A stretch of 40,850 bases of DNA from a virus (IMGVR_UViG_3300045155_000039), one strand, 5' to 3'; numbered from the stretch's first letter, positions 6,751 to 36,424 are shown. The notes: a model not told the origin generated them from the sequence alone. Program-made: numbers and translations.

Positions 6751-7182
6751 ATGTGGAAATTAATTAGACATACACTCGGTTATATTAATAAACGAAGTAC
6801 CTCTTTCGCATTCTCTCTAGGTTCAATCGGCTATGGGCTCTATCACTTCTTCAATTCTAACATTCTTTCATATTCAAACGCTTATGCGGCTATCAATAAT
6901 ATCTTCGGATTTATTGGTGGTCGTTATTTTGGTTTGATGTTTATCATCATCGGTGCTTTGAAAGTGTTTGGATTGATAATTGATAATGTGTATCTCAAGC
7001 TCCCTCTGTACTTCGTATTGCTGTTTCTCTGGCTTCTGTTAGGTTCTTGTTTCTTGGTTACTTTCATAGATGGCAGTACTAATCCATCGTGGATTTATTG
7101 CTTCACAATAGCGCTAATGAGCACAAATATCCTGAAGTCACATCAACAGGAAATAATTATAAAGGATGAAGTAGATGGATAG
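6751..7182 (+). CDS. Integral membrane protein (about 4 TM segments), lysis-module associated
   Basis: 143 aa with hydrophobic stretches throughout. It is the first gene of the lysis cassette. Confidence 0.6.
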   Translation: MWKLIRHTLGYINKRSTSFAFSLGSIGYGLYHFFNSNILSYSNAYAAINNIFGFIGGRYFGLMFIIIGALKVFGLIIDNVYLKLPLYFVLLFLWLLLGSCFLVTFIDGSTNPSWIYCFTIALMSTNILKSHQQEIIIKDEVDG

Positions 7183-7582
7183 ATTTTGGACCAGCGGATT
7201 TCCGCAAATCATGACAATTATCGGCGTTTTTCTTTCGGCGGTATACGGTCCGAAATTAGTGGCTAAAGTGCAGGGGAAGAACAAAGTTGAAGAAGTGAAA
7301 ACAGAAGGGGATAACAACGCAGAAGCTTTGTATATCCAAAACATGGGGAACATTATTGAAGGCTATCGATTGCAAGTTAAGGAGTTCAAAGATGAACTAG
7401 CAGCGGTTAGATCGGAATTTAGGGAGTTTAAGGAAGAACACGAGAAGCAAGTGACGGCGTACAAGGAACAAATTGGGTTTCTTGAGTTGCAAGTGGAAGA
7501 GCGAGATGAACGGATCCAAGAACTTGAAGGCGAAAACGAAACATTAAAAAACGAGAACACTATTTTGAAAGGTGGAATTTAG
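7175..7582 (+). CDS. Membrane-anchored coiled-coil protein (XhlA-like position)
   Basis: 135 aa with an N-terminal TM (IMTIIGVFLSAVYG) and a heptad-rich acidic/basic C-terminus. It overlaps the upstream gene by 8 nt. Confidence 0.6.
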   Translation: MDRFWTSGFPQIMTIIGVFLSAVYGPKLVAKVQGKNKVEEVKTEGDNNAEALYIQNMGNIIEGYRLQVKEFKDELAAVRSEFREFKEEHEKQVTAYKEQIGFLELQVEERDERIQELEGENETLKNENTILKGGI

Positions 7583-11608: not shown

Positions 11609-12736
11609 TTAGAAATAACGTTCATACATAGATATAGCTTCAGTTTCCATTTTCTTAGAAACATGAAGATACACGTTTGCGGTCATATTTATCGAAGAGT
11701 GTCCTAATCGTTCCGATACATATTTGATGTTAGATCCACTTTCAAGCAAGTGTACTGCATGAGAATGTCTTAATGCATGAGGTGAGAGACGAGGTAACTC
11801 GGCTAAATCGCACATTTTATAAAAGTAGGTTCTATAATTCGACTGCTTGATAAAGTCTCCGCGTTCATCTGTAAATACATACTCTTGATTAGGTATGTTT
11901 TTGGATGAAGCAAGGGCTAGCTCATTTTTTTTAATTTTGAAATTCTTTAATAATTCGATCAGATATCTGTCAATTACAATTTTTCTATAGCTTGATTGTG
12001 TTTTTGGAGGGTTTATATAGTCGGTTTTTCCCTCACGATACAAAGTTTTGTTTATTTCTATTTTATTTCTGTTCCAATCATCCCATTTCAACGCAGAAGC
12101 TTCTCCTAGTCTCAAACCAGTTCGTGATAAGAGTGTAGATAGCACAAAATAAAGGTAGTCCATAAAATCATTTTCTTCCGCATGACTTTTGCTGATGTCT
12201 AAAAAATAAACCAAATCATCTTTTTCAAAGAATTTTATTTCTTTTTTGTTTTTGTGTGATTTAGGATACTTTATATTTTTCATCGGATTGGATTCTAGTA
12301 ACTGGTATTCTACAACCGCATCCTCGAGCGCGCTATTGAAAGGGGCAACATAGGATTTGACAGAGTCTACATTTAAGTGATCGCAAAGTTCGTTGATCCA
12401 TGTTATACATTCAAGTCTTGTGATTTCGGTAAGTTTGTAAAACTCGAATCGTGGAAGGATGTACAAACGAATAGATTTTTTTATTCTATATAAAGTTGAC
12501 TGTTTGACAGTCCGTGCTTTCAGATCAATCCACATCTTTAAATAGTCCCCCACGAGCATGGATTCGTTGTATAAGGCCTTCCCCTTTTTTATCCTATTTT
12601 CAACCTCGATAGATGCTGCCAATGCTTCTTTTTCTGTTTTAAAACCTTGTTTGGCAACTTCCCTGTATACTCCGTTTTTCTTATAGCGAACTCGGTAACG
12701 CCAATTATCTTTAGCTACTTCTTTAATGTTTGCCAT
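11609..12736 (-). CDS. int: Tyrosine integrase
   Basis: Start MANIKEV at 12736, with AGGAG 9 nt upstream. Catalytic motifs are RTGLRLGE, HALRHSHAVHLL and LGHSSINMTANVYLHV. Confidence 0.95.
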   Translation of the reverse strand: MANIKEVAKDNWRYRVRYKKNGVYREVAKQGFKTEKEALAASIEVENRIKKGKALYNESMLVGDYLKMWIDLKARTVKQSTLYRIKKSIRLYILPRFEFYKLTEITRLECITWINELCDHLNVDSVKSYVAPFNSALEDAVVEYQLLESNPMKNIKYPKSHKNKKEIKFFEKDDLVYFLDISKSHAEENDFMDYLYFVLSTLLSRTGLRLGEASALKWDDWNRNKIEINKTLYREGKTDYINPPKTQSSYRKIVIDRYLIELLKNFKIKKNELALASSKNIPNQEYVFTDERGDFIKQSNYRTYFYKMCDLAELPRLSPHALRHSHAVHLLESGSNIKYVSERLGHSSINMTANVYLHVSKKMETEAISMYERYF

Positions 12737-12801
12737 ATTGTACCAACTCCTAATATTTGATAAAATAGGCATAGCAAATAAGCCTATATGTTTATTGCTC
12801 T

Positions 12802-12844
12802 GCACGCCTTCTGACCGCCAAGAAAGAGGGGCGTGCTTTTATTT
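12802..12844 (+). terminator. Bulged hairpin with a T-tract oriented for plus-strand termination, between immA and int
   Basis: gcacgcc...ggcgtgc with inner ttct/agaa pairs, followed by ttttattt on the plus strand. No U-run follows it on the minus strand. Confidence 0.4.
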
Positions 12845-35219: not shown

Positions 35220-36146
35220 ATGAAAAACAAACGATTAATGAATATGAATTTGCAATACTTTGCTCAGACTTGGAATCCAGATAATGTGACAGTTTATGAA
35301 ACAAAAGAAGGCAAGATCCCTGATAAGTACAACACGCTTATTGTCAATGAAGTCATGGAAAACTCTAAGATCATGCAGCTGGCCAAGTACGAAGAAATGA
35401 CGGACAAAGAAAAGAAATTCGAATACTTTGCTGAAGGTCCTGGCGCTTACTGGGTTGGTGAAGGTGAAAAGATCAAAACATCTAAACCTAAATGGCTACA
35501 AGCAACTATGGTTGCTAAAAAACTTGGTGTTATTATTCCAGTTTCTCGGGAATACTTGCACTACAAAATGTCAGACTTTTTCACTGTTATGCAACCTAAG
35601 ATTGCAGAAGCTTTCTACAAAAAGTTTGATGCTGCTGCATTGTTGAATACAGACAATCCGTTTCCACAATCTTTAGAAGAATCTGTTGTTGCGGCTGGCA
35701 ATGTGATCAACGGACCTCTTACTTACGAAAATATTTTAGCGTTAGAAGATGTGCTTGGCGAAAACGAATTCGAGCCGAACGCATTTATCTCTAACCGGAA
35801 AAATCGTACAGAACTTCGCTCTGCAGCTCAAACGGTTGGCACGAATGTTGAATTCATTTACGATCGTGCGGCTAATACTATTGATGGCTTGCCAGTAGTC
35901 GATTTGAAAGCTTTGGCAAAAGGCGAACTCTATGCAGGTGACTTTAACTACATGTTCTACGGAATCCCATACAACATCTCGTTCAAAATCTCTGAAGACG
36001 CTCAACTCTCAACTCTTACAAACGAAGACGGTACGCCAGTTAACTTGTTCGAGCAAGAATTAGTTGCTTTGCGTGCGACAATGGATGTTGGTTTCATGAT
36101 CGTTAAAGATGAAGCATTCGGGAAAATTCAACCGGCGGGGGAGTAA
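35220..36146 (+). CDS. Major capsid protein
   Basis: 308 aa, strong SD AGGAGGAAA. N-terminus MNMNLQYFAQ. The position follows the scaffold gene. Confidence 0.85.
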   Translation: MKNKRLMNMNLQYFAQTWNPDNVTVYETKEGKIPDKYNTLIVNEVMENSKIMQLAKYEEMTDKEKKFEYFAEGPGAYWVGEGEKIKTSKPKWLQATMVAKKLGVIIPVSREYLHYKMSDFFTVMQPKIAEAFYKKFDAAALLNTDNPFPQSLEESVVAAGNVINGPLTYENILALEDVLGENEFEPNAFISNRKNRTELRSAAQTVGTNVEFIYDRAANTIDGLPVVDLKALAKGELYAGDFNYMFYGIPYNISFKISEDAQLSTLTNEDGTPVNLFEQELVALRATMDVGFMIVKDEAFGKIQPAGE

Positions 36147-36424
36147 CAATCCCCGCTACAGGCGTTACAGTATCGCCTAAAACTTCAAGTGCAGTTGCGG
36201 GGACTGCCGGTAATAGACAATTAACAGCCACTGTTGCGCCACAAAACGCAACAAATAAAACAGTGACATATTCAATTGCGCCAGCAACAACTGGTTTGGC
36301 GGTTTCTTCTAGCGGTAATATTACCTGGACTGAAACTGTGCCTGCTGGTGAATACACGACAACAATCAAAACGGAAGATGGTTCACATACGGATACTCAC
36401 GTTTTGACTCTGACTGAACCGTAG
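36137..36424 (+). CDS. Ig-like (Big_2) C-terminal extension of the capsid protein, reached by a -1 frameshift
   Basis: The -1 frame is open 36113-36424 with no start codon. It encodes IPATGVTVSPKTSSAVAGTAGNRQLTATVAPQNATNKTVTYS...TEDGSHTDTHVLTLTEP. A GGGGG run at 36137-36141 lies one codon before the capsid stop. Confidence 0.65.
   Translation, partial: GGVTIPATGVTVSPKTSSAVAGTAGNRQLTATVAPQNATNKTVTYSIAPATTGLAVSSSGNITWTETVPAGEYTTTIKTEDGSHTDTHVLTLTEP

Follow-up and report, generated by a model that had tools for sequence, protein, structure and literature searches.

The DNA considered here, IMGVR_UViG_3300045155_000039 (40,850 nucleotides; this whole stretch is referred to below as the window), is a circular contig of an Enterococcus-type siphophage. 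Enterococcus as the host is suggested solely by the Enterococcus phages among its relatives. The window carries a major capsid protein gene of the HK97 type, the product of which matches the Pfam family that defines such proteins (PF05065, E=8.5e-35). The gene ends in GCG GGG GAG TAA, and the reading frame one nucleotide back (the -1 frame) is open across this end and continues into an immunoglobulin-like (Ig-like) domain. Comparison of related sequences indicates that the domain is very probably fused to a fraction of the capsid subunits through a programmed -1 frameshift at the heptamer G_GGG_GAG. The features of the junction are as follows (aa, amino acids; nt, nucleotides):

35220..36146, + strand: major capsid protein gene, HK97 type (zero frame; 308 aa, 34.8 kDa before any processing)
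36137..36143, + strand: proposed slippery heptamer G_GGG_GAG (zero-frame codons GGG GAG; -1 codons GGG GGA)
36144..36146, + strand: zero-frame stop TAA, adjoining the heptamer on its 3' side and opening the 6-nt spacer UAACAA (36144-36149)
36143..36424, + strand: -1 extension, VTIPATG...LTLTEP (93 codons plus TAG), which would add 9.37 kDa to give a 401-aa long form

The first-pass annotation of this DNA had described a start-less open reading frame (ORF) in the -1 frame at 36113-36424, and both its coordinates and its content are borne out. Along the capsid gene the -1 frame (codon starts at 2 mod 3) is interrupted by 24 stops, of which the TGA at 36110-12 is the last, and it then remains open for 103 codons, from 36113 to the TAG at 36422-24. 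With the off-frame stop frequency found in ten structural genes of the window (0.081), the chance of such an open run is about 1.7e-4. As had also been claimed, no ATG, GTG or TTG precedes the domain in this frame; the earliest of them is a GTG at position 36263 (codon 51), which lies midway through the domain. Comparison with relatives gives a ratio of nonsynonymous to synonymous substitution rates (dN/dS, Nei-Gojobori) of 0.11-0.28, a sign of purifying selection which indicates that the -1 frame is translated. Since this selection falls on the -1 frame of the + strand, the antisense ORF that is present at 36103-36369, and that had been dismissed as spurious, is unsupported.

The extension had been called a textbook Big_2 domain. 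This is accurate for the fold and slightly overstated for the Pfam score: the extension passes the cut-off for He_PIG (PF05345, 26.1 bits against 24) and misses the gathering threshold for Big_2 (PF02368, 19.0 bits against 22.8). A profile of the domain matches two entries of the Protein Data Bank (PDB), the C-terminal Big_2 domain of lambda gpV (2L04, E=7.7e-7) and the phi29 capsid protein. The AlphaFold2 model of the domain, made from a 16-sequence alignment, is a nine-strand sandwich with a predicted local distance difference test score (pLDDT) of 95, and has the beta-sandwich fold of Big_2 Ig-like domains. Its top Foldseek matches are the Big_2 structure 7QUZ (template modelling score, TM, 0.81; 37% identity), the BIG2 domain of the phi29 capsid (TM 0.78) and lambda gpV (2L04).

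The phase of the domain relative to the capsid gene is conserved. A scan of viral contigs with the Ig domain gave 52 loci, about 27 of them behind a capsid gene (L-numbers denote the loci compared), and a scan of genome contigs gave three distant matches among the matches listed. Without exception (27/27), the capsid-linked copies are in the -1 frame, and their overlap with the capsid stop falls at G_GGG_GAG_TAA/TAG or, in five contigs, at G_GGG_AAG_TAA. The phase is kept in 12 distinct sequences, which come from isolate genomes, metagenomes and the isolated phage EG-TP1, and this rules out a one-off assembly error. The same data bear on the broader proposal that the arrangement is an artefact or a product of decay, that is, a 1-nt assembly or sequencing error, a real frameshift mutation that has split an in-frame fusion, or an unexpressed relic. 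The window apparently derives from a metagenome or virome assembly, and homopolymer runs are error-prone. Moreover, one metagenomic relative (L030:2500-2512) has a G6 run, through which an E-type capsid protein and the Ig domain are joined in frame as one protein of 461 aa; the fusion may be natural and constitutive, or else the extra G is a homopolymer error. Against these points stand the recurrence of one phase in so many contigs, its retention where the run is G4 in place of G5 (L011-L014 and the L054 type), and the dN/dS of a translated frame, so that an origin by error or decay is very hard to credit.

The position of the shift is narrowed by relatives in which the -1 frame opens late. 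It opens 19 nt before the capsid stop in L012-L014 and just 13 nt before it in L015-L023, which confines the shift in the latter to ACC GGC GGG GGA G. Two candidate sites had been named, the GGGGG run at 36137-36141 and C-GGG-AAA-A at 36119-36126. Comparative evidence singles out the first, narrowed here to G_GGG_GAG at 36137-36143. This heptamer is correctly phased, and it is either invariant in the capsid-linked copies or replaced by G_GGG_AAG, a variant that retains the P-site part of the heptamer. The second candidate is excluded: it is out of phase with X_XXY_YYZ, and it lies upstream of a -1 stop (TAA or TGA) in L012-L023. The sequence GGGGGAG occurs only once in the whole window, and both of its zero-frame codons are rare in the capsid gene (GGG, 2 of 18 Gly codons; GAG, 3 of 29 Glu codons). 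The stop that follows is TAA or TAG in every relative save L024/L085 (one and the same contig), in which CAA replaces TAA (L024:2501-2525) and the zero frame gains 5 residues before a TAG 15 nt later; a stop abutting the heptamer is therefore not strictly required. Avoidance of GGGGRAG elsewhere in the window gave no signal (5 seen, 4.1 expected), and inspection of the relatives for an upstream Shine-Dalgarno-like stimulator found nothing conserved 10-14 nt 5' of the heptamer.

The Ig domain and the junction are found together behind three capsid families: PF05065, to which the window belongs, the E-type family PF03864 (L031/L032), and the XkdG-like family phrog_1623 (EG-TP1). The capsid proteins of the window and of EG-TP1 have no detectable similarity (E=7.9), and the nucleotide homology between the two begins exactly at GCGGGGG, position 36135 of the window. 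A complementary view comes from the capsid family of the window, of which 80 homologues were examined, one of them (L080) leaving its contig before the stop. About 24 of the 80 combine G_GGG_RAG with this Ig domain, and 38 combine C_CCA_AAA_GCG_TAA with a different Ig-like domain, again read in the -1 frame. In the 17 whose stop is not accompanied by a slippery motif, any -1 extension reaches 18 codons at most, short of Ig size. Slippery heptamer at the stop and -1 extension thus co-occur without exception among the 80 homologues.

The second class is a sister cassette, C_CCA_AAA_GCG_TAA_CGCCTG followed by its Ig-like domain, which is present in 38 contigs (L071-L124) and in phage vB_ElaS_B1578 (L003:2412-2705). 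Its heptamer, C_CCA_AAA two codons before the stop, is of the type seen in Lactobacillus phage A2; it is confined to the sister class of the capsid family and is not in the window, which has G_GGG_GAG. Two alternative frameshift cassettes, one G-rich and one of A2 type, would accordingly occupy the same position of one capsid family. Taken together, the conservation of site and phase, the selection on the -1 frame and the association of motif with extension support the programmed -1 frameshift that the first-pass annotation had proposed.

In the proposed mechanism, most ribosomes would terminate at the TAA at 36144-46 and produce the 308-aa capsid protein, and a minority would slip back by one nucleotide on G_GGG_GAG. 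The P-site tRNA-Gly on GGG can re-pair perfectly with the overlapping GGG, and the tRNA-Glu on GAG can do so with GGA, provided that a G:U pair is tolerated in the middle of the codon. The slipped ribosomes would then read 93 further codons in the -1 frame, so that the capsid protein reaches 401 aa and has a Big_2-type Ig-like domain (+9.4 kDa) at its C-terminus. The domain would sit on the capsid surface; a model of the in-frame L030 fusion, made without an alignment, has a pLDDT of 31, and the placement of the domain on the capsomer is unreadable from it. Tandem slippage, or a slip on GAG at the stop, would give the junction peptide IQPAGEVTIPATGVTVSPK, whereas a slip of the P-site tRNA alone on GGG, or insertion of a G into the RNA, would give IQPAGGVTIPATGVTVSPK. 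The junction AGEVT would arise solely from tandem ribosomal slippage, and AGGVT from a P-site-only slip or from RNA G insertion. From the comparisons above we infer that the shift is ribosomal, either in tandem or at the P site only; the ratio of the two forms, the role of a downstream stem and the function of the domain are put forward on the same footing.

The stem in question is predicted from the fold of minimum free energy (MFE) and comprises the following elements:

36150..36156, + strand: 5' arm of the stem, UCCCCGC (MFE fold), which can instead pair with the slip-site G-run at 36135-36141
36160..36178, + strand: inner hairpin AGGCG / CGCCU, within the long-range stem (MFE fold)
36197..36203, + strand: 3' arm of the stem, GCGGGGA, spanning the codons GCG GGG ACT of the Ig domain

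The predicted stem has 7-8 bp, is rich in G:C pairs and begins 6 nt past the heptamer. It would be at the mRNA entrance of the ribosome while the heptamer is decoded, and the stem formed by 36150-56 and 36197-203 is for this reason a likely stimulator of the shift. The 5' arm is unchanged in the 12 distinct sequences, including copies that are just 69% identical in protein, and both arms are invariant in all frameshift-linked copies. The codons of the 3' arm do vary in tail-linked paralogues of equal protein divergence, where they read GCA GGA ACC, GCG GGT ACT or GCA GGG ACA. In keeping with constraint on the RNA, the synonymous substitution rate (dS) in codons 2-24 is 2-6 times below that of the rest of the ORF (Fisher p = 0.0008-0.03). 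In the inner hairpin, one C:G pair is replaced by U:A in L030 and L032, both of the changes being synonymous, and L031 breaks the same pair.

Several observations weigh against the stem or against frameshifting at this heptamer. The arms never vary among the 12 distinct sequences, and there is consequently no covariation in the stem. Its folding energy is unremarkable (z = -0.88 for 100 nt and -2.04 for 181 nt), and RNAalifold favours a competing hairpin in which the slip-site G-run pairs with the same C-run. An analogous stem in 17 cassettes that carry a 21-aa tag, described below, shows covariation no better than column shuffles. The low dS by the junction could have a different cause, namely recent recombination of the 5' end of the cassette. 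The heptamer is itself noncanonical with respect to X_XXY_YYZ, as the move of the A-site tRNA from GAG to GGA needs the G:U pair at the middle position. Finally, EG-TP1 has a GTG 10 nt past GGGGGAG, which its record takes as the start of a 'structural protein with Ig domain' in its own right.

The last point belongs to an alternative in which the Ig domain is a separate protein of ~9.5 kDa. GGGGGAG, which resembles a Shine-Dalgarno sequence, would serve as one, and translation would begin independently or by re-initiation after the TAA, for example at the ATC at 36149-51, which in the window lies 5 nt beyond GGGGGAG. Public records of the B1578 type likewise start the sister domain, as a hypothetical protein, at an internal GTG. 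No start or near-cognate codon is conserved across the relatives, however: the ATC of the window is GTC in the L006, L007, L011, L025 and L026 types, with no ATG, GTG or TTG until 119 nt past the stop, and the GTG of the sister class is missing in L071-73 and L086, where the heptamer is present as always. A separate protein would also not require that three unrelated capsid families share a fixed -1 phase, a phased heptamer and an overlap with the stop, and the L030 sequence carries the fusion in frame. Separate translation of the domain is for these reasons improbable.

Fusion could also be achieved during transcription, if RNA polymerase adds one G within the G-run and so generates an in-frame mRNA with the junction AGGVT. 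The site is a homopolymer, and one added G gives precisely the fusion encoded in the DNA of L030. The run is nevertheless just 5 G, and 4 G in the L011-L014 and L054 types, while transcriptional slippage as known from bacteria occurs on far longer runs of A or T. The phase-specific conservation of G_GGG_RAG and its spacing to the downstream stem fit a ribosomal mechanism, and the sister cassettes use the classic ribosomal heptamers C_CCA_AAA, G_GGA_AAG and G_GGA_AAC. Polymerase slippage must hence be considered a highly improbable source of the fusion, and frameshifting by the ribosome on G_GGG_GAG is retained as the preferred explanation.

Ig domains added by frameshifting are said to have been known since phages T3 and A2 and a 2006 survey by Fraser and colleagues. 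Garcia and colleagues reportedly described in 2004 that a -1 frameshift yields gp5A and gp5B, the two forms of the A2 major head protein, and that the tail protein gp10 is made likewise. The concept is therefore already known, and the present case adds one instance, which is unannotated as a frameshift in public phage records. The end of A2 ORF5 (L140:3067-3087) reads ACC CCA AAA GCG TAA CGCCTG, identical to the junction of the sister class, and includes C_CCA_AAA, which we take to be the A2 slip site. The window resembles A2 in that some of the subunits would receive an Ig-like domain through a -1 shift close to where the capsid gene ends. It differs in having G_GGG_GAG abutting the stop and a different Ig sequence, and the likeness is not based on homology of the capsids. 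In A2 the frameshift adds its Ig-like extension to an essential head component (PMC5009743). Of the two precedents cited in the first-pass annotation, A2 is indeed close, and Listeria phage PSA is an analogue only, as its shifts are +1 (PMC5009743); besides A2, Listeria phages A118 and A500 are closer.

For the coat genes of A118 and A500, -1 frameshifting has been reported (Dorscht et al., 2009, as summarised in Atkins et al., 2016, PMC5009743). The capsid protein of the window is homologous to A118 Cps (37% identity over 296 aa, E=4e-65), and in both phages a phased, G-rich heptamer stands directly before the stop, at equivalent positions of the C-terminus (G_GGA_AAC_TAA in A118, G_GGG_GAG_TAA in the window), with a -1 ORF adjoining. 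The heptamers differ, the putative A118 slip site, as read from sequence, being G_GGA_AAC, and the payload of A118 is the HeH/LEM-type ORF7 of ~52 aa, with no Ig domain. In the A118 sequence (L141:3068-3245), cps continues in the -1 frame into ORF7, which is annotated as a HeH/LEM domain protein.

A heptamer nearly equal to that of the window, G_GGG_GAA, is found in mycobacteriophages, where GGGGGAA recurs as a -1 motif in the genes for tail chaperones and tRNA-Glu has been proposed to re-pair on GGA by means of a G:U pair (PRFect, PMC10885494). Those sites differ from the present one in lying in a G/GT chaperone gene of phages with high-G+C hosts, and their product is an assembly factor instead of a virion surface domain. 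With respect to the domain itself, phi29 gp8, mycobacteriophage Douge gp8 and phage T3 gene 10 have a C-terminal Ig-like domain on the capsid protein. T3 gene 10 uses -1 frameshifting (PMC5009743), whereas in phi29 and Douge the domain is part of the deposited capsid chain, which is taken to mean that it is in frame on every subunit. A literature search for this site or for capsid frameshifts in Enterococcus phages was matched by one paper alone, on the related phage phiEf11, which has two capsid bands, but in which the extension peptide was not found by mass spectrometry (PMC5221750).

The junction extends beyond capsid genes with this Ig domain. The pattern CGGGGGAGTAACNNNCCC, scanned against viral contigs, gave at least 81 matches in 80 listed loci. 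Among the matches listed, 53 of 81 sites terminate long ORFs, and all of those checked are major head or major tail proteins, of several PHROG families. The core GGGGGAGTAAC likewise ends major head genes (phrog_544, 840 and 10, and the capsids of IME197 and EFC-1) and major tail genes (phrog_820, 88 and 158) among the matches listed. At many loci the GGGGGAGTAAC core is followed in the -1 frame by a 21-aa peptide, VTSPxxGxVTPTTxGAxIxL (L145, L150, L152, L156, L164-L167, L172, L176 and others; L001:2424-2495). For the core GGGGGAGTAA, the genes ended in Firmicutes phages comprise at least six major head families (PF05065, PF03864/phrog_29, phrog_1623, phrog_544, phrog_840 and phrog_10) and at least three major tail families (phrog_820, phrog_88 and phrog_158). 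Its -1 payload, among the matches listed, is always the complete Ig domain seen in the window or the 21-aa tag.

This distribution suggests that unrelated head and tail genes exchange the slip site together with its stimulator and payload, as a single unit. On balance we lean slightly towards a portable recoding cassette, made of the 10-11 nt core GGGGGAGTAA(C) and a downstream stem of a C-run and a G-run, which may recombine together with its payload. If this is true, the frameshift signal would be inherited with the module instead of evolving anew once a domain has landed out of frame, the course proposed for phage Ig domains, and any abundant virion protein could gain a ready-made substoichiometric decoration.

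Some further observations concern the same motifs. In contig L166, the GGGGGAGTAAC core is present on both the head gene and the tail gene. The 21-aa peptide is also fed by other slip sites, G_GGA_AAG, C_CCA_AAA and A_AAA_AAA (L033, L034, L037). In L149 and L154, an ORF of about 120-127 aa ends in GGGGGAGTAAC and is followed by a 116-aa -1 extension, a layout like that of the G/GT tail-chaperone pair; neither the ORF nor the extension has a PHROG match, and an identity as tail chaperones is unsupported. In the window, inspection of the frames finds two more in-phase G_GGG_AAG heptamers, at 7273-7279 on the + strand in ORF 7175-7582 and at 12578-12584 on the - strand in ORF 11609-12805.

In public records the extension is either absent or entered as a small gene in its own right (EG-TP1, B1578), and nowhere is it presented as a frameshift. 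Once the frameshift is recognised, the records of this common group of temperate Enterococcus phages can be corrected, and a second, 44-kDa form of the capsid protein is predicted. The natural -1 sites known from Gram-positive bacteria of low G+C content would also gain a noncanonical heptamer, G_GGG_GAG abutting the stop. By analogy with other phage domains of this type, the function of the domain is likely to be weak adherence to carbohydrates or surfaces, or decoration of the capsid. Ig domains on the surface may influence how phages adhere in the gut, and the slip site could be put to use for display on capsids.

The surroundings of the capsid gene are those expected of the HK97 type, with the order scaffold (DUF4355), capsid and connector (Phage_connect_1, gp6-type). 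At the DNA level, the capsid gene is 76-78% identical to those of Enterococcus phages IME197, EFC-1 and B1578. An L27-like N-terminal motif is found in three capsid families, as MNLQYFA in the window (35220-35270), MNLQTFA in L031 (L031:1410-1470) and LNIQFFA in L166.

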